Origin: Pelagibacterales bacterium SAG-MED31
GTDB lineage: Bacteria; Pseudomonadota; Alphaproteobacteria; HIMB59; GCA-002718135
Assembly: GCA_014653715.1 (NCBI GenBank)
Contig: JACWEB010000002.1
Span: 4,717 to 68,716, forward strand
Direction of reading: 5' to 3'
DNA: 64,000 nt
The translations under genes and the position numbers were made by a program. Below, one piece after another: positions 4,032-42,107 of this stretch (its first letter is position 1; the number at the start of each line of letters is the position of its first letter). Under the pieces are notes generated by a model that saw nothing but the letters and a program-made list of their open reading frames with translations, was not told the DNA's origin and made no database searches.

Positions 4032-5893
4032 TTTTTAAAAATTGCTATCACTCCAGAAAATATCATTATAAATACTCCAATCCAAATAAAACTTACTAGA
4101 GGATTTATATAAACACTTATACTCCAAATATTATTGTCTTCGCTACCTAGGGTTATATAAAAATCCTTCAGCCAATCATGATAAATCCCTGCCTCAGTAG
4201 TAATCATTTTTGAGACTGGATAATAGTTTTTTCCTGGCATTATATAATTAATTAATTTATCTTCTTTTGTTAGTCTAAATAAAGCTCTTAATGACTGATA
4301 GTTTTTTTCTTCTGTTAGGTATAATTTTTCGAATTTTAAAATATTTTCATTTATTTTTACTTCTTCTCCTTCTGAAATATTAAAATTATACTCTTTTTGA
4401 TAAACACTTGAAAAGGTGATACCTATAATCATTATTCCAACACCTATATGAGCGATAAAACTATTTATGGATTTTATATAATTAAATGAAATTACAAACT
4501 TATATCTTAGGACTATTGATATTGTAGATGACAGAATGATCCATGAGCCTAATATTAAACCAATAAATCCCCAAGTATTAAAAACTGTTAAATAAGAATG
4601 CAAAAAAACAACAAAACTTAAAATTAAAAAAAATACAACATAAACTTTAAATTTTTTTATTTTATTTGATTGCCAAGAAAGCACTGGTGCGATGCTCATT
4701 AGTAAAAAACCAGGTAAAAGCACTGGTAAGACAGTAGAATTAAAGTAAGGTCCTCCTACAGAAATTCGAGTATTTGTCATAACTTCAATAATAATTGGAT
4801 AAATAGTGCCTAAAAGTATTGTAAGCATAGCTATTATCATAAGAATATTATTAATAATTAAAGCTGATGTTTTATTAATTAAAAGTAAATTTAAATTATT
4901 ATTATTCTTAGGTGGCTTAATTAGAAAAATTAAAAATCCAAAACCAGTCGTTAAAAAGAAAATTAGTAATATAAATAGACCTCTTGAGGCATCAGATGCA
5001 AAAGAATGAACACTTGTCAAAATTCCTGATCTAACTAAAAATGTTCCTAAAATACTTAAAGAAAAACAAAGTATCGATAAAAAAACAATCCATCTTTCAA
5101 TTATTTGTTCACCCCTGATCATTATTAGCGAATGTACTAATGCTAGACCAACTATCCATGGCATTAATGAAATATTTTCAACAGGATCCCAAAACCACCA
5201 TCCTCCCCAACCAAGCTCATAATACGCCCAGTAAGATCCAAGAGCTATTCCAGCAGTTAGAAACGTCCAACTTACAATTGACCATTTTTTTGTTTCATAG
5301 ATCCAATTTTTATCTTCTTTTTTATTAAATAAACTTGCTATTGCTAAACTAAATACTAATGAAAAACCTACATAACCTAAATAAAGTGTTGGTGGGTGAA
5401 TTGCCAAAGCTGGATCTTGTAAAATTGGATTTAATCCAAGACCTTCGTTAACTAAGATAGAATTTACCAAGAAAGGATTTGACGTAAAAATTATAAAAAA
5501 AGCAAATATTATAAATAGAGTACTTTGAATTTTTAATACATTAATTTTAAAATCATCTAATGAATTACTGCTTAAAGAAAATAAAAATCCATAAATTGAA
5601 ATCATACAAAGCCATAATAAAATAGATCCTTCATGATTTCCCCAAGCTCCAGAAATTTTATAAATAAATGGTTTTTCTGAATGTGAATTTTGAAAAACAT
5701 TAAAATTTGAAAAATCAGAATTAATATATGCTAATACTAATGATAAAAACGAAATACAAACTAAAATAGTTGAAAATCTAAAAATTAATAAAAAAAATTT
5801 AATATTTATTTTTAATATTGAATTAGGTATCAGCAAAGCAAGTGAAAAGATAATGGATAAACATAGTGAAGAAAAACCTATAAGTGAAATCAT
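4028..5893 (-). CDS. ccmF: Heme lyase CcmF
   Basis: WGNHEGS, LNPILQDP, HPP and WAYYELGWGGWWFWDPVEN motifs. Confidence 0.96.
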   Translation of the reverse strand: MISLIGFSSLCLSIIFSLALLIPNSILKINIKFFLLIFRFSTILVCISFLSLVLAYINSDFSNFNVFQNSHSEKPFIYKISGAWGNHEGSILLWLCMISIYGFLFSLSSNSLDDFKINVLKIQSTLFIIFAFFIIFTSNPFLVNSILVNEGLGLNPILQDPALAIHPPTLYLGYVGFSLVFSLAIASLFNKKEDKNWIYETKKWSIVSWTFLTAGIALGSYWAYYELGWGGWWFWDPVENISLMPWIVGLALVHSLIMIRGEQIIERWIVFLSILCFSLSILGTFLVRSGILTSVHSFASDASRGLFILLIFFLTTGFGFLIFLIKPPKNNNNLNLLLINKTSALIINNILMIIAMLTILLGTIYPIIIEVMTNTRISVGGPYFNSTVLPVLLPGFLLMSIAPVLSWQSNKIKKFKVYVVFFLILSFVVFLHSYLTVFNTWGFIGLILGSWIILSSTISIVLRYKFVISFNYIKSINSFIAHIGVGIMIIGITFSSVYQKEYNFNISEGEEVKINENILKFEKLYLTEEKNYQSLRALFRLTKEDKLINYIMPGKNYYPVSKMITTEAGIYHDWLKDFYITLGSEDNNIWSISVYINPLVSFIWIGVFIMIFSGVIAIFKK

Positions 5894-6330
5894 TTATATT
5901 TTTTCTTCCATTGACTATTTTTTTCTAATTCTTTCTTAATTGAGGCAGGCATATAGTTTTCATCATGTTTTGCATAAATTTTAGAAGCAATGATATTATT
6001 TTTATTATTTAAAAAACCTTCAATTACAGTCCCTTGACCTTCTCTAAATAAATCAGGCAATATACCTTCATAAAAAACTAAAAAGTCATTATTATTATCA
6101 GTAATTTTAAACTGATATTTATTAAGAGATATTTTTTTAAAGGAAGACTCTTTTACATATCCACCTATTCTTAACTTGTTGTTTATAGAAATTTTTTTTT
6201 CTATAAGTTCTGAAGGGGTATAAAAAAAAACTATATTTTGTTTTGTGTTAAAAAGTATTAAGATAGAAGCTGTCCCTAGCATAGCCAATGTAATTAATAT
6301 TAATACTAGCCTTTGAAACCTTAAACTCAT
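5890..6330 (-). CDS. ccmE: Heme chaperone CcmE
   Basis: LPDLFREGQG and the AKHDENY heme-binding motif. Confidence 0.96.
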   Translation of the reverse strand: MSLRFQRLVLILITLAMLGTASILILFNTKQNIVFFYTPSELIEKKISINNKLRIGGYVKESSFKKISLNKYQFKITDNNNDFLVFYEGILPDLFREGQGTVIEGFLNNKNNIIASKIYAKHDENYMPASIKKELEKNSQWKKKYK

Positions 6331-6332
6331 AA

Positions 6333-6431
6333 TTATCTGTACTTTTTAAATTTTAGGTAAGACTGAAGAAGTAAACCGAAAACTAATAAAAATGCAGAAA
6401 AATATGTAATAAATACAAACCAAAAATACAT
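6333..6431 (-). CDS. ccmD: Heme exporter protein CcmD (32 aa, not in ORF track)
   Basis: Hand translation MYFWFVFITYFSAFLLVFGLLLQSYLKFKKYR*: one TM helix with a Tyr and a basic tail, in the ccmC-ccmE gap; stop is 2 nt before the ccmE ATG. Confidence 0.8.
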   Translation of the reverse strand: MYFWFVFITYFSAFLLVFGLLLQSYLKFKKYR

Positions 6432-6486
6432 AATTACTTTTATATATTTAATAACAGATAAAGTGGTGACTAAAGGTCACAAATAG

Positions 6487-7185
6487 CTAAAGATAGTTTT
6501 TTCTTGTTAAAATCTCTACTTTTATTCTTAAAATCGCAATTATTAGGCCAACTAGGCTAAAAGCAACAGTCATCACTAAAAGAGGTTGAAGCATTGATAT
6601 ATCTATTGAGGGAGAAGATAATTTGCTCACACTTGCAGGTTGATGCAAAGTATTCCACCAATCAACAGAAAATTTTATAATTGGAAGGTTAATGGAGCCA
6701 ATTAAAATGAATATTGCTATTGTTTTTTCTCTTACTTCTCTATTTTCAAATGTTTGATTCAAAAAAATAATTATTACATAAATTATTAATAAAATAGCAA
6801 CTGATGTTAATCTTGCATCCCATACCCACCAAGTTCCCCACATTGGTTTTCCCCACAATGATCCTGATAAAAGGCATAAAACGGTAAATACTGTTCCTAT
6901 GGGTGCAATTGCTTTATTAATTATAAAACCAAATGGTATTTTAAAAGCTAGACTAATTATACTATATATAGTCATTATGGCGTAAGTTAAGAGAGCTAAC
7001 CAAGCTGAAGGGACATGGATATACATAATTTTAACAGTCAAGCCTTGCTGATAATCTAATGGAGAACGATAAACTAATATTAATCCAGTCACTAAAATTA
7101 TAGATGTAATTGCAACAAGTGGTTTAAATATAGTATCTGAAAATTTATTGAAACTATTTGGATTTAAAAGAAATTTAAACATCAT
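6487..7185 (-). CDS. ccmC: Heme exporter CcmC
   Basis: MYIHVP, WGKPMWGTWWVWDARLT and WWNTLHQ motifs. Confidence 0.97.
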   Translation of the reverse strand: MMFKFLLNPNSFNKFSDTIFKPLVAITSIILVTGLILVYRSPLDYQQGLTVKIMYIHVPSAWLALLTYAIMTIYSIISLAFKIPFGFIINKAIAPIGTVFTVLCLLSGSLWGKPMWGTWWVWDARLTSVAILLIIYVIIIFLNQTFENREVREKTIAIFILIGSINLPIIKFSVDWWNTLHQPASVSKLSSPSIDISMLQPLLVMTVAFSLVGLIIAILRIKVEILTRKNYL

Positions 7186-7853
7186 TTATTTTTTAAAGCT
7201 AACTTTATAAAAGCACCACTTGACCAAGGGGAAATTCCTAAAAAAATTAGAGCTATACCTAAAAGTAAATTAAATAAAGAGTAAAAATTATTTTCATATT
7301 CATTTATTCCAACTGAGAATATAATTAACGGAATACTAAATAGTAGAACAAGTATACTCCCAATTGAAAAATTAGTTTTGTTTAATAGATTCATTGATGC
7401 TGAAATAGAGCCTAAACAAGATAAAATCAATGAGCCAATAATAAATGTTAAAATTAAATTATAAACCTCAATAATTGGAAGATTAAAGAAAATACTTGCT
7501 ATAGGTAAAGAAATTAAAAAAGGCATTTGTACAAATAAAAAATGAGATATTATTTTTAAAAAAGCGATAAATTCGTAACTAATCCCACTCATATGAAATA
7601 TAATAAGAACACCATTATTAAAATCATCTTCATAAAATTTTCTTAAACTTAAAGTAGAGCTAAAAAGTAATAAACTCCAAATTATACCAAGGCCTATTGA
7701 TCTTAAAAGCTGTTCATCAGTTCCTAATGCAAATACAAAAACAAAAATAGATAAGAAAAAAAATATAATATTTGATAAAAGATCAACAATATTATTATGA
7801 AATAGCTTAGACTCTCTTTTAAAAAATAAAAATATTTTTTTTACAAAAAGCAT
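7182..7853 (-). CDS. ccmB: Heme exporter permease CcmB
   Basis: Multi-TM protein with 'FYEDDFNNG' and IPLIIF, between ccmA and ccmC. Start taken as ATG 7853. Confidence 0.88.
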   Translation of the reverse strand: MLFVKKIFLFFKRESKLFHNNIVDLLSNIIFFFLSIFVFVFALGTDEQLLRSIGLGIIWSLLLFSSTLSLRKFYEDDFNNGVLIIFHMSGISYEFIAFLKIISHFLFVQMPFLISLPIASIFFNLPIIEVYNLILTFIIGSLILSCLGSISASMNLLNKTNFSIGSILVLLFSIPLIIFSVGINEYENNFYSLFNLLLGIALIFLGISPWSSGAFIKLALKNK

Positions 7854-7854
7854 T

Positions 7855-8463
7855 TTAATTAAAATCAATAACTCTTAAATTTTCAATTGATGGATTAAAA
7901 TGAGATGCAAATAGAATAATTCCATCTTTATTAATATGATCAATGAAAGTTTGATTTAAAATTTCGATAGATAAATCATCAAGATGATTGTAGGGCTCAT
8001 CCAGAATCCATAATTTTTTTTTCTCCAAAATTAGTCTTAAAAGTTCTAATTTTTTAACTTCGCCAGTTGATAGATACATAACTTTAGTATCTTTATATTT
8101 TTTTAAATTAAATGTTTCTAATAATAAATTAATATCATAATCATTTAACTTTGATGAGGATAGCCCTCGCCAAAAATTAATATTATCAAACACTGTTAGT
8201 TTTCTAGATGATGTATTCTGATCCATTATAAAAGTTGTTTCATTATAAAAATTAAATATATTTTTTTTTATATTTTTTCCTTCCCAAAATATTTCTCCAA
8301 TTTTAGAGTCTAAAATATTTAAAATTACCTTTAGAAAAGTTGTTTTACCAGATCCATTTTTTCCTCTAATCTGAGTTATTTGACCATTGCCTATAGATAA
8401 ATTTAAATCTTCAAAAATTAAAATATCATTTCTGTAGAAAGATAAATTATTTACAAGAAGCAT
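7855..8463 (-). CDS. ccmA: Heme exporter ATP-binding protein CcmA
   Basis: Walker A GKNGSGKT, LSTGE signature, LWILDEP. Confidence 0.93.
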   Translation of the reverse strand: MLLVNNLSFYRNDILIFEDLNLSIGNGQITQIRGKNGSGKTTFLKVILNILDSKIGEIFWEGKNIKKNIFNFYNETTFIMDQNTSSRKLTVFDNINFWRGLSSSKLNDYDINLLLETFNLKKYKDTKVMYLSTGEVKKLELLRLILEKKKLWILDEPYNHLDDLSIEILNQTFIDHINKDGIILFASHFNPSIENLRVIDFN

Positions 8464-8499
8464 TTTTAAAGATTAAGATTATTTTAAATAATAAACAAT

Positions 8500-8527
8500 A
8501 AAAAAAACGGGGATAACCCCGTTTTTT
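8500..8527. terminator. Rho-independent terminator downstream of the histone-like gene
   Basis: AAAAAACGGGG-ATAA-CCCCGTTTTTT, with U-tracts on both strands. Confidence 0.85.
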
Positions 8528-8592
8528 GTAATTTTAGAAAAATTAAGAAAAAGAAAAAAAATTGATTTTTTTCTCTACTTAAAAAAAATAGA

Positions 8593-8814
8593 CTATCTTC
8601 TTCTTTTCTTAGCAGCCTTTTTCTTTTTCTTAGGAGCAGCTTTTTTCTTCTTAGGAGCTGCTTTCTTTTTCTTCTTAGGAGCAGCTTTTTTCTTCTTAGG
8701 AGCTGCTTTCTTTTTCTTCTTAGGAGCAGCTTTTTTCTTCTTAGGTGCTGCTTTCTTTCTCTTTGGTGCAGCTTTCTTCTTCTTAGGTGCTGCTTTCTTT
8801 TTCTTCTTTGCCAT
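8593..8814 (-). CDS. Lys/Ala/Pro-repeat histone H1-like small basic protein
   Basis: 73 aa: 41 K, 4 R, 19 A, 8 P, 1 M, arranged as AAP plus 4-5 basic residues x8. AAGGAG SD upstream, terminator downstream, synonymous variation among the repeats. Confidence 0.8.
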   Translation of the reverse strand: MAKKKKKAAPKKKKAAPKRKKAAPKKKKAAPKKKKKAAPKKKKAAPKKKKKAAPKKKKAAPKKKKKAAKKRRR

Positions 8815-8819
8815 TTAAT

Positions 8820-8892
8820 GCTCCTTGTATTGGGTTATAGTGGAGGAACCCCCCTCCATCATCACTTAAAATAAGTGACAAACACAAAAGGC
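8820..8892 (-). promoter_or_regulatory. Structured 5' leader of the histone-like gene
   Basis: Hairpins TCACTTA/TAAGTGA (8862-8878) and TGGAGG/CCTCCA (8841-8858), with a possible basal stem covering the SD. Confidence 0.5.
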
Positions 8893-9161
8893 TTTCTTTT
8901 TTTCCCAAAACTTACGGACAAAGTCAACAATATAAGAAAATCAATTATTAGTGAAATTTTGTTAGTATTATTTTTTTTAAATTTTTATTTATTTATATTC
9001 GTATTTTTCCCAGAATTCTAATTAAAATTTACAAAACAGGTATACAAAATTTTTTTTAGTATTATGAAGGTAAAAAGTTATTACGTAACTAAAAAATTTT
9101 TTATTTTTAATCAATTATAAGTTATGTTTAATTATTTTTTATAAAAAACTATTTATTTAAT

Positions 9162-11801
9162 ATGCAATCTCTAAATTCATTCAATGCTTGTAGAAATATA
9201 GCAATCGATAAAAATAAATATAAGTATTTTGACTTGAATATACTTGCAAATATCTATGATTTTGATCTACTAAAAGTTCCTAATTCAATCAAAATTATTC
9301 TTGAAAATTTGATTAGAAATGAGGACGGAGAGTCAGTTACAAAAGAAATGATCTCTAGTTTATGCAGGAAAATATTTGAATCTAAAGATAATTTTGAAAT
9401 ATCTTTTTCACCTACTCGTGTTCTTATGCAAGATTTTACAGGCGTTCCAGCAGTAGCTGATTTAGCTGCAATGCGCGATGCATTAAAAAAGAAAGGTATC
9501 GATCCTAATAAAATTAATCCATTATCAAGAGTTGATCTTGTAATAGATCACTCTGTTATGGTCGATCATTTTGGAAATGATAAAGCATATGAAGAAAATG
9601 TAAAAAAAGAGTTTGAACGTAATAAAGAAAGGTACGAATTTTTAAAATGGGGCCAACATGCTTTTGATAATTTTTATCTTGCTCCTCCTGGAGGAGGAAT
9701 ATGTCATCAAGTAAATCTTGAAAATATTGCGACAACTATTTGGTTAGGTAAAATTGGTAAGCATAACTATCTTTATCCAGACTCAGTAGTTGGAACTGAT
9801 AGTCACACAACAATGGTGAATGCCCTTTCAGTTTTAGGTTGGGGAGTTGGTGGTATAGAAGCTGAAGCTGCAATGTTAGGTCAGCCAATATCCATGAATG
9901 TTCCAAAAGTAGTTGGTTTCAAGTTAGATGGTAAGTTACAAGAGGGTATTACAGCAACAGATCTGGTTTTGACCATAACTAAAATATTAAGAGAACATGG
10001 AGTAGTTGGAAAGTTTGTGGAGTTTTATGGTGAAGGCTTAAATAATTTGTCTCTTTCTGACAGATCAACCATTTCAAATATGGCACCAGAATATGGAGCA
10101 ACAAGTGGTTTTTTTTCAACAGATCAAGAAACAATTAAGTATTTAGAATTATCTGGAAAAGACGAACATCAAATTCAAATTGTCAAAAAATATACATCAA
10201 TGCAAAAGCTTTGGATTGATGACAAATACGATCCATACTTTGATGAAAAATTAAACTTAGATTTGACTAAAATAGAGCCATCAGTTGCAGGTCCAAAAAG
10301 ACCACAGGATAAAATACTTGTAAGAAATATTCCTGAAGTATTTAAAACTATAGACGGTAGTAGTTACGATAAATCAATTAATAATAAGAAACTTCAATCT
10401 GGAGATGTTGTTATTGCGGCTATAACAAGTTGTACAAATACTTCGAACCCCAATGTCATGATTGCTGCGGGTTTAGTTGCTAAAAAAGCAGTTGAGTTTG
10501 GGATAACTGTTAAACCATGGGTAAAAACAAGTTTAGCACCTGGAAGTAAAGTTGTTAGTGATTATTTAGATAAAGCTAATTTATCTCAATATCTTGACCA
10601 AATTGGTTTTAATTTGGTTGGTTATGGCTGTACGACTTGTATAGGTAACTCAGGACCCCTTAAGGAATGGGTATCAAATGAAATAAAAAATAATAAATTA
10701 ACAGTTTGCTCAGTATTGTCAGGTAATAGAAATTTTGAGGGCAGAGTTCATCAAGAAGTAAAGGCTAATTTTTTAGCCTCACCTCCTCTTGTAGTTGCTT
10801 TTGCTATTGCAGGTAATATGAATGTTGATGTATTCAATGAACCTATAGGAGTTAGCAAATTAGGGAAAGAAATATATTTAAAGGATTTATGGCCATCATC
10901 ATCTGAAATAAATAAAATTGTTGATAATTCAATATCTATTGAAATGTTTAAGAAAAGATATGAAGAAATTTACATCGGTGATCAAAATTGGCAATCAATT
11001 GTTAGTATTCCAGAAAAGACTTATTCTTGGAACAATTCAAGCACATACATAAAACATCCACCTTTTTTTACTGATGAAAAAAATCATGTGAAAGATATAA
11101 TAAGCGCAAGAATTCTTGCTATGCTTGGTGATAGTGTTACGACAGATCATATTTCACCAGCGGGAGCAATAAAGTTAGATAGCCCTGCTGGTAAATATTT
11201 AAATGAAAGACAAATAAGTAGAAAAGATTTCAACTCATATGGTTCTAGAAGAGGCAATCATGAAATTATGATGAGGGGTACTTTTGCTAATATTCGTATT
11301 AAAAATGAAATTGTTCCTGAGACAGAAGGCGGAATCACAAAATTTTTTGATCAAGACGAGCAAATGTCAATTTATGATGCTGCTATCAAATATCAAAAAA
11401 AAGATATTCCCCTCGTTGTTTTTGCGGGAAAAGAATACGGGACCGGATCTTCAAGAGACTGGGCTGCAAAAGGGACTAAGTTACTAGGTATAAAAGCTGT
11501 TATCGCTGAAAGTTTTGAGAGAATACATCGATCAAATTTAATTGGTATGGGGGTTTTACCTTTACAGTTTATAGGAAAACAAAACAAAAAATCACTTAAA
11601 CTTAATGGAAGTGAAATTATTTCAATAAAAGGCTTGGCAAATATTAGTCCAAACTCAGAAATTGATTGTGAAATTTTATCAGATAAAAAAATAGATATAA
11701 AACTTTTATGTAGAATAGACACGATTAAAGAACTGGATTATTATAGTCAAGGTGGTATTCTTCAATACGTGTTAAATTCAATAATTAAAAAAGCATCATA
11801 A
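9162..11801 (+). CDS. acnA: Aconitate hydratase A
   Basis: QDFTGVP, IDHS, GTDSHT, TSCTNTSNP, GCTTCIGNSG, TTDHISP and GSSRDWAAKG motifs. Confidence 0.98.
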   Translation: MQSLNSFNACRNIAIDKNKYKYFDLNILANIYDFDLLKVPNSIKIILENLIRNEDGESVTKEMISSLCRKIFESKDNFEISFSPTRVLMQDFTGVPAVADLAAMRDALKKKGIDPNKINPLSRVDLVIDHSVMVDHFGNDKAYEENVKKEFERNKERYEFLKWGQHAFDNFYLAPPGGGICHQVNLENIATTIWLGKIGKHNYLYPDSVVGTDSHTTMVNALSVLGWGVGGIEAEAAMLGQPISMNVPKVVGFKLDGKLQEGITATDLVLTITKILREHGVVGKFVEFYGEGLNNLSLSDRSTISNMAPEYGATSGFFSTDQETIKYLELSGKDEHQIQIVKKYTSMQKLWIDDKYDPYFDEKLNLDLTKIEPSVAGPKRPQDKILVRNIPEVFKTIDGSSYDKSINNKKLQSGDVVIAAITSCTNTSNPNVMIAAGLVAKKAVEFGITVKPWVKTSLAPGSKVVSDYLDKANLSQYLDQIGFNLVGYGCTTCIGNSGPLKEWVSNEIKNNKLTVCSVLSGNRNFEGRVHQEVKANFLASPPLVVAFAIAGNMNVDVFNEPIGVSKLGKEIYLKDLWPSSSEINKIVDNSISIEMFKKRYEEIYIGDQNWQSIVSIPEKTYSWNNSSTYIKHPPFFTDEKNHVKDIISARILAMLGDSVTTDHISPAGAIKLDSPAGKYLNERQISRKDFNSYGSRRGNHEIMMRGTFANIRIKNEIVPETEGGITKFFDQDEQMSIYDAAIKYQKKDIPLVVFAGKEYGTGSSRDWAAKGTKLLGIKAVIAESFERIHRSNLIGMGVLPLQFIGKQNKKSLKLNGSEIISIKGLANISPNSEIDCEILSDKKIDIKLLCRIDTIKELDYYSQGGILQYVLNSIIKKAS

Positions 11802-11806
11802 AATTA

Positions 11807-14371
11807 GTGAGTGAAGTTGACGGCAACTTAGTAGCCATATTAGGTCCTACTAATACTGGAAAAACCTATCTAGCATTTGATAGACTTATGTCATATCAGT
11901 CAGGTATATTTGGTTTTCCACTGCGTTTATTAGCTCGTGAGAATTATGATAAGGCTGTAAAAAGGATTGGAATTAATAATGTTGCATTAATAACAGGCGA
12001 AGAAAAATTTATTCCAAAAGAAGCTAAATATTTCTTTTGTACCGTAGAGTCTATTCCTAAAAATCTTAGTGTAGAATGTGTTGCTATTGATGAAATCCAA
12101 TTAGCATCAGATTATGAAAGAGGACATGTATTTACTGAACATCTTTTAAATACTAGGGGAGAATTTGAGACTATTTTTTTAGGATCTTTAACAATTAAAT
12201 CATTATTATTAAAAATATTTTCAAATATTAAATTTGAGTTTAGAGAAAGATTTTCTGAACTTACATTTACTTCAAATAGAAGTTTTTCAAAACTTAAACC
12301 TCGCTCAGCAGTAATTGCCTTCAATATAAATAATGTTTATGAAATTGCTGAAAATCTAAAATCTCATAGAGGTGGTGCAGCAGTTGTGCTTGGCTCATTA
12401 AGTCCTCGAACTAGGAATGCACAAGTTGAGATGTATGAGGAAAAAAAAGTTGATTATCTTGTTGCAACAGATGCAATTGGAATGGGACTAAACCTGAATA
12501 TTGACCACATTGCTTTTTCTTCAGTAGAAAAATACGACGGAAGATTTAAAAGAAATTTATTCCCCAATGAAATTGGACAAATTGCTGGAAGAGCTGGCAG
12601 ATATGAAAAAAATGGAACTTTTTCATTGTTGAAAGATGCTGGTGAGTTGGACACAAAAACTATAAAAGATATTGAAGACAGTAATTTTTTTTCAATTAAT
12701 AAAATATATTGGAGAAATACATCTCTTGATTTTTCCAATATTGAGAGTTTTCTTGCAAGTTTAAAAGAGTTTCCTGTTCATAATTTCTTTATTCATAAAA
12801 AAAATGCAACTGACGAATTAAACTTTAGACATTTAATTGAAGATCAAAACATAAAGAAGTTATTGACAGAAAAAGAAAGAATAAAATTACTTTGGGATGT
12901 TTGTAGAATTCCAGATTTTCAAAAATTATTTAATGATACTTATCTTCAATTTCTCAAAACAATTTTTTTACTTTTAATTAAAAATGAAAAAATACCTAAA
13001 TTATGGCTTGAAAAAAATATTTTAGGACTCCAAAATTATAATGGCGGCATAGAAGAACTTTCATCAAAAATTTCTCAGGTAAGAACATGGACATATATAT
13101 CAAATCATCCAAATTGGATTAATAATGAAAAATATTGGCAGGAAATTACTCAAAAAATTGAAAATGATTTATCTGATAATTTGCATGAAAGATTAACTAA
13201 TAGATTTGTTGACTTAAACTCTAAATATTTCATAAAATCCAATGAAAAACATTTAAACCAAGATTTAAAAGTAATAAATGATAAAATAATAACAATTAAT
13301 GGTAAAAAATACGCCGCATTTTTAGGTTTTGATTTAAAATTGGATAAAAATGCAATTTCTCATTCTCTTTTTTCTCTAACTCATGTAAAAAAATTAGCAA
13401 GAATAATGATTGAAGAAAAAATTAAAATTTTTTTAAATGCTCCTAATGAGTCAATAAATTTTGGCAATATTTATGACATAGATTTTAATCAAAATATTAA
13501 AATTTACTGGGGAGAGGAATTGGTGGGATATCTTATAAAGGGCTCAAATATATCATCTCCTGTTGCAGAGGCTTTAAACACTGAATACATAACCAGTGAA
13601 AATAGATTATTAATTGCTGCAAAACTTCAAAAATGGATTGATGAATTAATTAAAATATTATTGTGGCCAATAAAAGAAAATGATGATGAAAATATTCCTG
13701 CTAATATCAGGGCTATTAAATTTAATGTATTTGAAAATTTTGGAACAATTGCTATTGAGCAATTCAGTAGTACTCTAAAAAATATATCTCTTGAAGAAAA
13801 AAACATAATATCAAAGTTAGGTATTCGCATGGGTGCTAAGTATTTTTTTGTTCCTAATTTTTTAAAAAAAGCACCAATGGAAACAGCTGCTCTTTTATGG
13901 TGTATTTATAATGATTATAAATTTGAAGGCCCTATCTCATTGCCAAAAGATGGCAGAGTATCTTTTGAGATTAAAAATGAAATGAAAAGAGATTATTGGC
14001 CAGCAATTGGCTACATAAAATTGAATAATTTTGCATTAAGGGTTGATGTTTTCGAAAGAATTTTTTTTATAGCAAGGCAAAAAATTAAAAATGGTCCTTT
14101 TATTGACTCATCAGATTTAATGAATCCAGTCGGTTGTGATAGAGATCAATTAAGAGATATTTTAAAATTTTGTGGCTTTAGTGTATTAAAATTAAATAAT
14201 GAAAGAGATTTATATTATAATGAACTAAAAAAATATTCCAAAAAATTAACAAAAGATAAATCAAAAAAAATAAATATTAAAAAAAATAACAAAATAACTA
14301 AAAATTTAAATAAAAATAAAAAGCTAGTAGATCCAAATTCTCCTTTTGCAGTTTTGGAAAAACTACTTTAA
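11807..14371 (+). CDS. SUV3/MgpS-like SF2 helicase
   Basis: GPTNTGKT, IDEIQ, ATDAIGMGLN, QIAGRAGR and C-terminal DPNSPFAVL; usual position upstream of fdxA-carD. Confidence 0.92.
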   Translation: MSEVDGNLVAILGPTNTGKTYLAFDRLMSYQSGIFGFPLRLLARENYDKAVKRIGINNVALITGEEKFIPKEAKYFFCTVESIPKNLSVECVAIDEIQLASDYERGHVFTEHLLNTRGEFETIFLGSLTIKSLLLKIFSNIKFEFRERFSELTFTSNRSFSKLKPRSAVIAFNINNVYEIAENLKSHRGGAAVVLGSLSPRTRNAQVEMYEEKKVDYLVATDAIGMGLNLNIDHIAFSSVEKYDGRFKRNLFPNEIGQIAGRAGRYEKNGTFSLLKDAGELDTKTIKDIEDSNFFSINKIYWRNTSLDFSNIESFLASLKEFPVHNFFIHKKNATDELNFRHLIEDQNIKKLLTEKERIKLLWDVCRIPDFQKLFNDTYLQFLKTIFLLLIKNEKIPKLWLEKNILGLQNYNGGIEELSSKISQVRTWTYISNHPNWINNEKYWQEITQKIENDLSDNLHERLTNRFVDLNSKYFIKSNEKHLNQDLKVINDKIITINGKKYAAFLGFDLKLDKNAISHSLFSLTHVKKLARIMIEEKIKIFLNAPNESINFGNIYDIDFNQNIKIYWGEELVGYLIKGSNISSPVAEALNTEYITSENRLLIAAKLQKWIDELIKILLWPIKENDDENIPANIRAIKFNVFENFGTIAIEQFSSTLKNISLEEKNIISKLGIRMGAKYFFVPNFLKKAPMETAALLWCIYNDYKFEGPISLPKDGRVSFEIKNEMKRDYWPAIGYIKLNNFALRVDVFERIFFIARQKIKNGPFIDSSDLMNPVGCDRDQLRDILKFCGFSVLKLNNERDLYYNELKKYSKKLTKDKSKKINIKKNNKITKNLNKNKKLVDPNSPFAVLEKLL

Positions 14372-39346: not shown

Positions 39347-40383
39347 TGAGCTTTACTATTCTCGATCATTATAATGGTTTTGTTGCTAATAACTTTATTA
39401 AAAAAGATATTAATCAAACTGATTTACTAAAACAAATTTCTTTTGCATGGGATAAATATAATAAAAATAATAGTTTTTTTTCTAAAAAGAAAAAAGTAGG
39501 CCTTTATGTTTATGGCTCTGTTGGGACAGGAAAAACTTTTTTACTAAGTTTATTTTCACAATACAGTAAAGTTGGGAAGAAAATACATTTTAATCATTTA
39601 ATGAATAACATTCATGATGCCATTAACTCAAACGAAAATAAAAATCAAAAACTAGAATTTTTTATTAAAGAATTCTGTAAAAATATTAAAATTCTTTTTA
39701 TTGATGAATTACATATTTTTAATATAGTTGATGCACTTATAGTTAGAAAAATTTTTCACTTTCTTGAGGTAAATAATATATTTGTAATGACTTCTTCAAA
39801 TTATAATCCAGATGATCTTTATCAAAACGGCTTACAAAGAGCAGATTTCATACCTTTCATAGAGCATATAAAAGAAAATTATGATGTAATTAGTATTGAT
39901 AGTGTGAAAGATTATAGAAGGATTACTCTCAATCAATCAAAGACATATTTCACACCTATTAATAAAGACACGGAAGAGGAATTCAATTTACTTTTTGAGA
40001 GGTTAGTAGATATTAATAATTTAACAACTAAGAAAATAAAAATTAAAAGCAGAGAGATAAATTTTATCAAATGTTCAGCTAATGTAGCTTATTGTAATTT
40101 TGATTTTATTTGTAATACAAATCTTGCACATGAAGATTATGCAAATATTGCTAGAGAGTTTAAACTTATTTTTATACAAAAAGTTCCAAAAATGACAGAA
40201 GATTACTCTGATCAATGTAGAAGATTCATAAACCTTATAGATATGCTCTACGATAATAAGTGTTCAGTTGTTATTCTTGCTGAAAATCCAATTTCTTCTC
40301 TGTGTCAAATTAATAATCTATCTAAAGAATTTAAGAGAACAGCTAGTAGATTATATGAAATGACTATTATTCAAGCATCATGA
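39346..40383 (+). CDS. zapE: AFG1/ZapE family ATPase
   Basis: GLYVYGSVGTGKT, LFIDE, TSSN, LYQNGLQR, RRFINLID and RTASRLYEM motifs. Confidence 0.92.
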   Translation: MSFTILDHYNGFVANNFIKKDINQTDLLKQISFAWDKYNKNNSFFSKKKKVGLYVYGSVGTGKTFLLSLFSQYSKVGKKIHFNHLMNNIHDAINSNENKNQKLEFFIKEFCKNIKILFIDELHIFNIVDALIVRKIFHFLEVNNIFVMTSSNYNPDDLYQNGLQRADFIPFIEHIKENYDVISIDSVKDYRRITLNQSKTYFTPINKDTEEEFNLLFERLVDINNLTTKKIKIKSREINFIKCSANVAYCNFDFICNTNLAHEDYANIAREFKLIFIQKVPKMTEDYSDQCRRFINLIDMLYDNKCSVVILAENPISSLCQINNLSKEFKRTASRLYEMTIIQAS

Positions 40384-41369
40384 AAAAAAAACTTTTAATA
40401 GTATTGTCTTCTATAATTTTTATTGGTTTGGTTATTTATGGATCAGCAGGATTTTATGTTGCTTATAGTATTCTTAAAATAGATCATACATGTGGTTGGC
40501 ATGAAAATTCAAAACCCAATTCCTGGAGCACTAAAATTGATGCTCATGAATATACAAACTTATCAAGAAGTAGGTTAAGAGAGAATTTTCCTTCAAGCGA
40601 ATATCATCTAGATCAATGGCAAAATGTGTATTTTCCATCAAGAGAGAGTGAAATTCAACTTAATGGCTGGTTATTTAATTATTATTCAGATCGTCCAATT
40701 GTAATTGTTATTCATGGAATTTATCCAAATGGTAAATGTAAGCCAGAATCAAACTTAATTGCTAGTTTATTAATTAAAGAAGGCATTAATGCTTTTACCA
40801 TAGATTTACGTAATTATGGTCAGAGTGATACAGTTAGTAACTATGAAGATTTAGGTTTAAAATCTTATAATGATGTTTTGGGAGCTTATGATTATTTAAA
40901 AAAAATTGGTTTTGAAAGCAATAGTATTGGTCTTCACGGTATTTCATTAGGTGCAGTTCCTGCAATTTTTGCAGCAAATCAAGAAAAAGAAATAAAAGCT
41001 ATTTGGGCAGATAGTTCTTTAGCTGAATTTAGTATGGTGCTCCAAGATGAAATTGCACGCTATGGATTATCCATTGAGTTTGGACCTGCTGTTAGTTTTT
41101 TTGGAAAACTATTATCTGAAGTTGATCCTATTAATTTAAATCCTGTTGAAAAATTAACCAGCGTCCAAAATTATTTTTTTACACATGGAGATAAAGATCA
41201 AAGAATGCTTGTAAGACATTACTATTATTTTCAAAAATATGTTGAGGAGAATAATATAAAATCTGATTTTTGGTTAGCAGAAAACTCATATCATGTAGAT
41301 GGTATGTTTAAGTATCCTGAACTATATGCAAAAAAAATGAAGATTTTTTTTGAAGACAATTTAAGGTAA
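40380..41369 (+). CDS. Membrane-anchored alpha/beta hydrolase
   Basis: N-terminal TM helix, IHG, DLRNYGQS, nucleophile GISLG, HGDKD, C-terminal His. Confidence 0.88.
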   Translation: MKKKLLIVLSSIIFIGLVIYGSAGFYVAYSILKIDHTCGWHENSKPNSWSTKIDAHEYTNLSRSRLRENFPSSEYHLDQWQNVYFPSRESEIQLNGWLFNYYSDRPIVIVIHGIYPNGKCKPESNLIASLLIKEGINAFTIDLRNYGQSDTVSNYEDLGLKSYNDVLGAYDYLKKIGFESNSIGLHGISLGAVPAIFAANQEKEIKAIWADSSLAEFSMVLQDEIARYGLSIEFGPAVSFFGKLLSEVDPINLNPVEKLTSVQNYFFTHGDKDQRMLVRHYYYFQKYVEENNIKSDFWLAENSYHVDGMFKYPELYAKKMKIFFEDNLR

Positions 41370-41372
41370 ACA

Positions 41373-41511
41373 AGTCGGATTGTCTTTGCTAGTTTGTACC
41401 TTGGCAGACACTTCTCTAGTAAAAAAACTCGGTTATCATCAAACGGCGGGTAAGATGAAAACATTTTCCTGGCGTTCCTCCGAAGCAAAGAAAATGAGTT
41501 ACAATCCGACT
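41373..41511 (-). ncRNA. Unidentified ~139-nt structured RNA
   Basis: 11-bp terminal stem AGTCGGATTGT/ACAATCCGACT plus a 7-bp CTTTGCT/AGCAAAG stem; about 42% GC (hand count) with a very AT-rich upstream flank; promoter placed at its 5' end. Confidence 0.7.
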
Positions 41512-41517
41512 AAAACT

Positions 41518-41546
41518 AGATTACATTTAATGGTTCAAAAATTCAA
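41518..41546 (-). promoter_or_regulatory. sigma70-type promoter for the structured RNA
   Basis: TTGAAT-17 nt-TAATCT, then 6 nt to the first base of the terminal stem (41511). Confidence 0.6.
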
Positions 41547-41612: not shown

Positions 41613-41633
41613 CTATCCACAGACTTATGCACA
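41613..41633 (+). promoter_or_regulatory. Tandem DnaA boxes
   Basis: CTATCCACA (1 mismatch to TTATCCACA), 3 nt, TTATGCACA (matches TTATNCACA). Confidence 0.55.
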
Positions 41634-41735: not shown

Positions 41736-42107
41736 ATGTCATTGCATCGCCCTTTATCCCCACACCTTTCTATTCATAAGAAAGTTTTAACTGCTGTTTT
41801 CTCTATTTTTCATAGATTTACTGGTATTTGTCTCAGCCTTGGTATTATTTTGCTATCAATATGGATTATGATTGTTGCTCTTGGTCCTGCTTACTATTCG
41901 ATATTTGAGGCATTAAGTTCATTAATCATTTTTAAGATATTTTTATTTCTTTGGACACTTACGATTTTCTATCATCTTTATAATGGTATTAGGTATCTAT
42001 TTTGGAGCTATGGTAAAATGATGGAACTTGGTACTGTTTACAAAAGTGGATATGCGGTAATTATTTTGTCAATTTTATCTACATTAGTAGTTTGGGCTTC
42101 TGTATGA
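41736..42107 (+). CDS. sdhC: Succinate dehydrogenase cytochrome b556 subunit
   Basis: RPLSPHL, SIFHRFTG and HLYNGIR motifs. Start ATG 41736. Confidence 0.96.
   Translation: MSLHRPLSPHLSIHKKVLTAVFSIFHRFTGICLSLGIILLSIWIMIVALGPAYYSIFEALSSLIIFKIFLFLWTLTIFYHLYNGIRYLFWSYGKMMELGTVYKSGYAVIILSILSTLVVWASV

Follow-up and report, generated by a model that had tools for sequence, protein, structure and literature searches.

A conserved small RNA divergent from sdhC in HIMB59-group marine bacteria has three arms with predicted pairing sites in the ftsZ, rsmH and MarR-like mRNAs

Streamlined marine alphaproteobacteria have few regulators. In Escherichia coli, the prophage-encoded, Hfq-dependent RNA DicF acts by antisense pairing at the ftsZ ribosome-binding site. 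Four other small RNAs offer close comparisons. EcpR1 of Sinorhizobium meliloti has two hairpins and one main seed, and uses a conserved GC-rich loop, UCCGCCGCAUCU, to pair with cell-cycle mRNAs without Hfq; its validated targets are gcrA and dnaA, while ftsZ was tested and found not to be regulated (PMC4414408). In the StsR/UpsM system of Rhodobacter sphaeroides, StsR requires Hfq, binds the mraZ 5' leader and base-pairs with a structured element early in the dcw transcript, promoting cleavage by RNase E (PMC8266604). The 6C sRNA of Mycobacterium pairs with mRNAs through C-rich loops without RNA chaperones (PMC6486639), and in the SAR11 sRNA-1/PBC-3 pair the predicted sRNA has a G-rich loop, GAGGGAG, that is exactly complementary to a conserved cis motif (PMC6429828).

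We describe an RNA that, by analogy, appears to work like EcpR1, StsR/UpsM, 6C and DicF, that appears to be a member of none of these families, and whose own family seems to be uncatalogued. Our preferred reading, to which we give a probability of about 0.72, is that it is a trans-acting, chaperone-independent antisense regulator whose three arms would pair with three conserved predicted mRNA sites. Searches for the chaperones found Hfq in 0 of 5 genomes and ProQ in 0 of 34. Like EcpR1, this is an alphaproteobacterial sRNA, and its arm B loop shares CCGCCG with the EcpR1 loop, but it lies at another locus, has other predicted targets, and R1, the model that we built from it, matched 0 of 150 other alphaproteobacterial families. 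Unlike StsR, which binds a leader, it matches a site inside the rsmH coding sequence. It resembles DicF in having the ftsZ ribosome-binding site as a predicted target, but it is a core chromosomal gene with further dedicated arms and has no Rfam match. 6C uses similar C-rich loops for many targets, whereas here three different arms have one conserved site each; the SAR11 RNA provides a parallel for loop-to-conserved-motif pairing in a streamlined marine genome, but differs in sequence, context and partner, has a single seed, and does not lie beside sdhC. We also considered and rejected homology with EcpR1, StsR or DicF, based on the lack of an Rfam match and on the R1 result, bearing in mind that Rfam need not cover all three. 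Our literature search, mostly outside subscription papers and including the supplements of PMC6429828 in part, found no description of the RNA.

The window is the whole 64,000-nucleotide stretch of Pelagibacterales bacterium SAG-MED31 DNA that we analysed. Its relevant features are as follows.

41373..41511, minus strand: small RNA gene of 137-139 nt with a cloverleaf fold (P1; arms A and B, both enclosed by a short P2; last, arm C), from fold, conservation and transcript
40380..41369, plus strand: convergent alpha/beta-hydrolase gene, its stop 3 nt from the RNA 3' end (gene context only)
41736..42107, plus strand: sdhC, first gene of the divergent sdh-mdh operon and fixed neighbour in this family and its sister family (gene context)
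41518..41523, minus strand: -10 hexamer TAATCT of the probable RNA promoter, assigned by consensus and conservation
41541..41546, minus strand: -35 hexamer TTGAAT, near-invariant as TTGAA
41613..41633, plus strand: two putative tandem DnaA-box-like 9-mers (41613-41621 and 41625-41633), between the RNA promoter and sdhC
41501..41511, minus strand: 5' strand of terminal stem P1, pairing with 41373-41383; 100% paired, with two-sided changes at 4 of 7 counted pairs
41373..41383, minus strand: 3' strand of terminal stem P1, pairing with 41501-41511
41467..41492, minus strand: arm A hairpin, with a seed (41470-41481) complementary to an rsmH hairpin (loop UUCCUCC) in relatives
41437..41457, minus strand: arm B hairpin, with a seed in its C-rich loop (41443-41449) that complements the ftsZ ribosome-binding site
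41389..41419, minus strand: arm C hairpin, whose 41402-41418 segment is perfectly complementary, over 17 nt, to nt 2-18 of a MarR-like gene (G000:C23:51053)

We found that this stand-alone, minus-strand RNA divergent from sdhC is real and beyond chance. Its bounds are 41373/4 and 41510/1; the span of 41373-41546 given in the initial annotation also takes in the promoter. The element has a GC content of 41.7%, compared to 17.9% in the spacer beside it and 30.4% across the window, and its folding z-score is -3.25 on the minus strand and -4.72 on the plus strand, with 0 of 200 shuffles as stable on either. Three early claims, namely a perfect 11-bp terminal pairing (41501-41511 with 41373-41383), a GC content of about 42% and divergence from the TCA operon, which sdhC heads as the sdh-mdh operon, were all borne out.

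The promoter that had been proposed, TTGAAT and TAATCT separated by 17 nt, is present upstream of the RNA on the minus strand, and a similar pattern (TTGAA-17-TAnnnT-like) occurs in 75 of 80 homologous loci; a generic scanner missed it because the -10 matches only 3 of 6 consensus bases. In RNA run X6, 16 contigs are confined to 41374-41510, with a summed depth of about 4,500-14,100, and end in adapter sequence on both sides of the RNA; this expression comes from one of six RNA runs, and since contigs cannot show strand, the strand is assigned from the G-U pairs seen in homologues together with the conserved promoter. Runs X1, X3 and X4 had no cover on the RNA, while X2 and X14 had one contig each, at a depth of 3-4, crossing the RNA start site. 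The RNA runs yielded a discrete, deep transcript in X6, on which, with the absence of an Rfam match, the claim of a stable, independently transcribed RNA stands, and shallow cover or none in the other five runs.

The fold of the RNA is well defined by covariation. Among 19 diverse sequences, the cloverleaf has 94% of cells paired and 9 pairs with two-sided changes, which 0 of 500 shuffles reached, compared to 31-43% paired in slid controls. The inner fold of the initial annotation did not survive this comparison. The 7-bp stem of that annotation is 82% paired and perfect in only 12 of 80 loci, and its UCGG/CCGA helix is 68% paired; covariation for this rod-like inner fold was no better than in shuffles (130 of 500), and its helices are 5.9 kcal/mol worse than the cloverleaf in the bacterium's own genome. 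The claim that G-U pairs favour the minus strand did hold, as one terminal pair appears as U-A, U-G or C-G among homologues. While the stems vary with compensation, three stretches are invariant across genera, which suggests that they have pairing partners outside the RNA. A small ORF behind the GGAGG of arm A was rejected, as alignments show no conserved start codon. The RNA is an independent, discrete transcript without a conserved ORF.

BLAST found the RNA in 82 of 116 genomes of the family and in 10 of the 11 near-complete ones, with one match each in 81 of the 82 positive genomes, fixed beside sdhC. The eleventh near-complete genome, G132, carries a divergent form beside sdhC, which matches the model weakly (E 0.24) and is confirmed by context, and the 20 stretches of G132 covered, about 310 kb of 1.5 Mb, include no ftsZ, rsmH or MarR-like gene; the 20 other BLAST-negative family genomes (57-85% complete) had no match to R1. 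A three-motif pattern recovered 81 stretches among 185,579 species genomes, and the 80 listed are labelled, with one exception, as marine Alphaproteobacteria, Pelagibacteraceae or Proteobacteria (including MarineAlpha5 bins, AG-337-I02 and HIMB59-LRMED). These taxa place the RNA family in the AEGEAN-169/HIMB59 group (PMC10308909). The exception, L285, is a 3.4-kb contig in a Flavobacteriaceae bin that carries the RNA with its sdhC/hydrolase context, and is likely misbinned. The 18 viral matches to the pattern cover only 16-25 nt of the model and thus give no phage copy. A metagenome scan yielded 45 matches, from which we dropped 32 that were GC-rich and without an sdhC match; 10 of the 13 remaining AT-rich forms have an sdhC match. 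In these 13 forms, the arm C seed is kept in 5, its hairpin has an altered sequence in 3, and the arm is absent in 5, the pattern having demanded arms A and B. In two forms, the 3' strand of the arm C inner stem is altered and the seed strand is not.

In 44 of 49 genomes, the sister family has a distinct RNA of 85-105 nt at this position, likewise divergent from sdhC (G037 L120:2025-2120; L139-L181). It has one invariant hairpin with the loop CCCCGCA, is without arm C, and keeps only the ftsZ seed. It has no Rfam match and is not matched by R1; the link between the RNAs of the two families consists of position, a shared P1/P2 layout and the intermediate form in G132.

These distributions bear on whether the element acts only in cis or is a mobile repeat, which we consider hardly credible. 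A terminator of the convergent hydrolase gene, or a leader, would fit the start of the element 3 nt past the hydrolase stop and its good folding on both strands, and in the sister family and G132 a same-strand transporter gene does follow. However, the RNA is a single-copy element at a fixed position, with its own conserved promoter and discrete transcript ends; different lineages have different genes downstream, and the gene that follows in the sister family has its own TATAAT-like box in front. Dispersed copies, as expected of a MITE, were not found: BLAST gave a single match in the bacterium's own genome, as in nearly all other positive genomes.

We examined whether the RNA belongs to a known class. 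Rfam returned nothing at the gathering score and only noise at E<=10, in keeping with the early suggestion of a possible new family. The exclusion of a tRNA, SRP, RNase P or tmRNA identity was upheld: the RNA is not RNase P, SRP or tmRNA RNA because relatives carry canonical genes elsewhere, RNase P RNA in 45 of 61 genomes, SRP RNA in 4 of 5 and tmRNA in 5 of 5. Some motifs are like those of RNase P RNA, and we rejected an RNase P relic given the full RNase P RNAs in those 45 of 61 relatives. The suggested IMES type found no backing, as no IMES family matched at E<=10 and IMES-2 exceeded its cut-off in 0 of 5 genomes.

The suggested 6S type fared no better, although a highly diverged 6S (or IMES-type) RNA, mimicking an open promoter to bind RNA polymerase, deserves separate comment. 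6S RNA usually lies in front of ygfA. In 4 of 4 loci (L125, L126, L127 and L128), the gene before ygfA, which we take to be zapA by position only, abuts or overlaps ygfA, and the RNA that we describe sits beside sdhC. The 6S model (RF00013) matched 0 of 61 genomes of the order, compared to 5 of 14 in a control, and 6S appears to be lost or unrecognisable in the order. A vacant 6S role, similar size and abundance in run X6 would thus suit a diverged 6S RNA. The RNA is, however, a cloverleaf without a long rod or central bubble, complements in mRNAs account for its invariant bases, the form in the sister family measures only 95 nt, and neither 6S nor IMES matched even at E<=10; we consider this explanation very unlikely.

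The arm B loop points to ftsZ. A scan of the bacterium's own genome (G000) recovered the arm B complement at the ftsZ ribosome-binding site, and of the 945 start regions scored against arm B, ftsZ comes first (z -4.7) and NAD kinase second. Indeed, of 954 ORF starts in G000, ftsZ is the only one with GGCGG in the -22 to -4 window. The ftsZ site, ACGGCGGAG, is invariant in 17 of 17 leaders of the family, while its AT-rich flanks vary. The net energy of the ftsZ seed duplex after opening both partners is -9.8 kcal/mol; the seed is only 6-7 bp in distant genera. In the sister family, we predicted the site from the loop CCCCGCA beforehand and found (T/C)GCGGGG in 12 of 12 ftsZ leaders; ftsZ is likewise the one start among 1399 in G037 with TGCGGGG in its ribosome-binding window. 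With the whole sister-family hairpin as query, ftsZ ranked only 13 of 1399 in G037. Thus, the loop and the ftsZ site have both changed between families with pairing still possible (12 of 12), a compensatory change that counts as one evolutionary event, family against family. We rejected ftsB as a second sister-family target: it ranks first in G037, and its synonymous sites vary freely in the 18 genes shown. The 5' end of an initiator-type tRNA offers the sister-family loop a further complement.

We also note two features of the ftsZ leaders. Immediately ahead of the ftsZ site, the ftsA-ftsZ spacer (L182:3105-3140; L183-L211) has a conserved inverted repeat or promoter led by TTGACG, and many ftsZ leaders of both families contain GANTC words, which we presume to be possible methylation sites.

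The longest match is that of arm C. In G000, no perfect complement of the RNA is longer than the 17 nt at nt 2-18 of the MarR-like gene, and the next longest has 13 nt; 11 of 500 shuffles reach a 17-nt complement anywhere in G000. The gene ranks 1 of 945 start regions for arm C (z -7.6), with aroA second. It lies between ferredoxin and lysS and encodes a MarR/SlyA-like product of 153 aa that scores below curated cut-offs; its leader is AT-rich and without a Shine-Dalgarno site. In 24 same-genome pairs, the 384 positions of the 16-nt duplexes comprise 373 Watson-Crick pairs, 9 G-U pairs and 2 mismatches, with the MarR-like proteins 44-85% identical to the query. Net energy after opening both partners is -17.0 kcal/mol. 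The gene is present in 25 of 32 family genomes and in 0 of 6 genomes of the sister family, whose RNA is without arm C. In 12 diverse genes, synonymous codons are invariant at 4 of 5 positions inside the site compared to 5 of 38 elsewhere, for which the Fisher p values of 0.005-0.006 overstate the significance because N-terminal codons are constrained anyway and kin are non-independent; the fixed codons include GAC, which makes up 15% of Asp codons genome-wide.

The MarR-like gene heads a run with lysS and pyrD. Directly before it are two tandem 12-bp palindromes (L212:3028-3054; G000:C23:51027-51053), conserved in homologues and likely the gene's own operator. We rejected a wider MarR-like regulon, as the palindrome pair occurs only in this promoter in G000.

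Arm A matches were read in relatives, since rsmH is absent from G000 (54% complete). A blind search for the arm A seed complement in five near-complete genomes found an exact 10-mer inside rsmH in 5 of 5, together with the RNA gene itself and two unshared coding matches. rsmH lies near the start of the dcw operon. The site takes in the 5' strand of a hairpin together with its CCUCC loop, 150-168 nt ahead of the rsmH stop; all 24 family loci beside rnpB carry it, as against 0 of 6 loci from the sister family. The exact 17-mer of the hairpin was found in 5 of 5 further genomes, with 0 control matches. Across 26 same-genome duplexes, arm A and rsmH form 11-12 contiguous pairs, with core changes only to G-U, and rare G/C-ending codons are fixed at the site. 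The net energy for the rsmH of G001 is -9.3 kcal/mol after opening both partners; inside the RNA, the seeds of arms A and C are in part base-paired, and opening them costs 6-7 kcal/mol. Synonymous sites of rsmH are conserved over about codons 246-279, a region that extends beyond the site and has covarying hairpins of its own, so the site may be kept for another reason. We rejected ald as an arm A target: it ranks first among 945 in G000, but the 21 genes shown have free variation at synonymous sites.

We observed two further structures in these genomes. The rsmH coding sequence contains a structured element of roughly 110 nt, with three hairpins, two of which have compensatory changes (one non-synonymous), a U-tract and the invariant CCUCC loop; it could be an RNA derived from the coding sequence, or else the leader of an ftsL transcript that starts internally. 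In addition, a 10-mer one base off the arm A complement is repeated in pairs 63-72 nt apart, as in tandem-aptamer leaders.

L245:1440-1560 region (G113): rsmH structured element, with homologues at L032-L055, L246, L248, L249 and L374-L378
G113:C1:460775-460852, 462815-462891 and 794779-794857: paired 10-mers, with similar pairs in G062, G136 and G138

Taken as sequence comparisons, these results match conserved seeds in the RNA with conserved, predicted complementary sites in trans. Within the family, seeds and sites are nearly invariant and intermolecular changes are only of the G-U type; this near-invariance leaves no two-sided intermolecular covariation there. We considered that the matches might be shared DNA- or protein-binding motifs, or chance among G/C-rich words, with the RNA acting through a protein in an unrelated function. 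At 30% GC, G/C-rich words are scarce, so conserved ones attract each other, and the sister-family loop also has a complement in an initiator-type tRNA. Yet each of the three sites is antisense to the RNA, G-U pairing accommodates 9 of the 11 deviations in arm C, sites and arms are co-present or co-absent between families, and the two equally ranked duplexes (ald and ftsB) are not conserved. We judge this explanation improbable.

We also considered that only ftsZ is regulated, and that the rsmH element and the MarR-like mRNA are sponges that titrate or destroy the RNA, in which case transcribing dcw would lift the repression of ftsZ. There is a precedent in E. coli, whose dcw operon yields RNAs derived from coding sequence (PMC6156199), and the retention of the ftsZ seed alone in the sister family and the loss or alteration of arm C in metagenome forms both favour this reading. 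On the other hand, the arm C site over the start codon is in the classic position for repression. We consider sponges unlikely, if less so than motif sharing or chance.

If the RNA is a three-armed antisense regulator, as we prefer, each pairing has a plausible outcome. The exposed C-rich loop of arm B would pair with the unusual ftsZ Shine-Dalgarno site and occlude it from the 30S subunit, and the RNA likely represses FtsZ synthesis in this way. The 16-17 bp duplex of arm C over the MarR-like start codon would block initiation or invite RNase III cleavage. A loop-loop contact of arm A (GGAGGAA with UUCCUCC) could open the rsmH hairpin and alter processing or stability of the downstream ftsL-ftsI message.

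The spacer upstream of the RNA suggests a possible input. When we scanned with the DnaA-box consensus, DnaA-box-like 9-mers in one orientation were present in 76 of the 80 spacers of the family and in 21 of the 25 of the sister family, compared to a background of 0.08 per 195 nt of intergenic DNA; the strict form accounts for 27 of 80 family boxes and for 19 in the sister family. The putative boxes are closer to the sdhC promoter than to the RNA promoter. We do not favour a replication origin at this spacer, as there is no GC-skew switch there; the G037 skew minimum falls near 280-300 kb, with sdhC at 246 kb and the sole three-box cluster at 189 kb. That cluster (G037 L388:8837-9033; C1 about 188.8-189.0 kb) is the only one of three strict DnaA boxes within 400 nt and is an origin candidate, away from the GC-skew minimum. 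In the weakest step of the mechanism, the upstream boxes would tie RNA synthesis to replication state, making the RNA a brake that delays division. A fuller version, in which a DnaA-controlled checkpoint RNA grips both ends of the dcw cluster (the rsmH hairpin and the ftsZ ribosome-binding site), gains or loses arms with their sites, and has the ftsZ Shine-Dalgarno site as a co-evolved private address, is possible, but we hold it as tentative.

An orphan RNA now has a proposed mechanism that is open to in vitro test: it offers three exact predicted RNA-RNA pairs, of which two involve the division operon, and the two families supply a natural compensatory pair. With one arm for each target, and arms gained or lost with their sites, the family would provide an unusually clear case of the evolution of an sRNA regulon. 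If the checkpoint proposal is true, this RNA would couple replication state to division in streamlined ocean bacteria.
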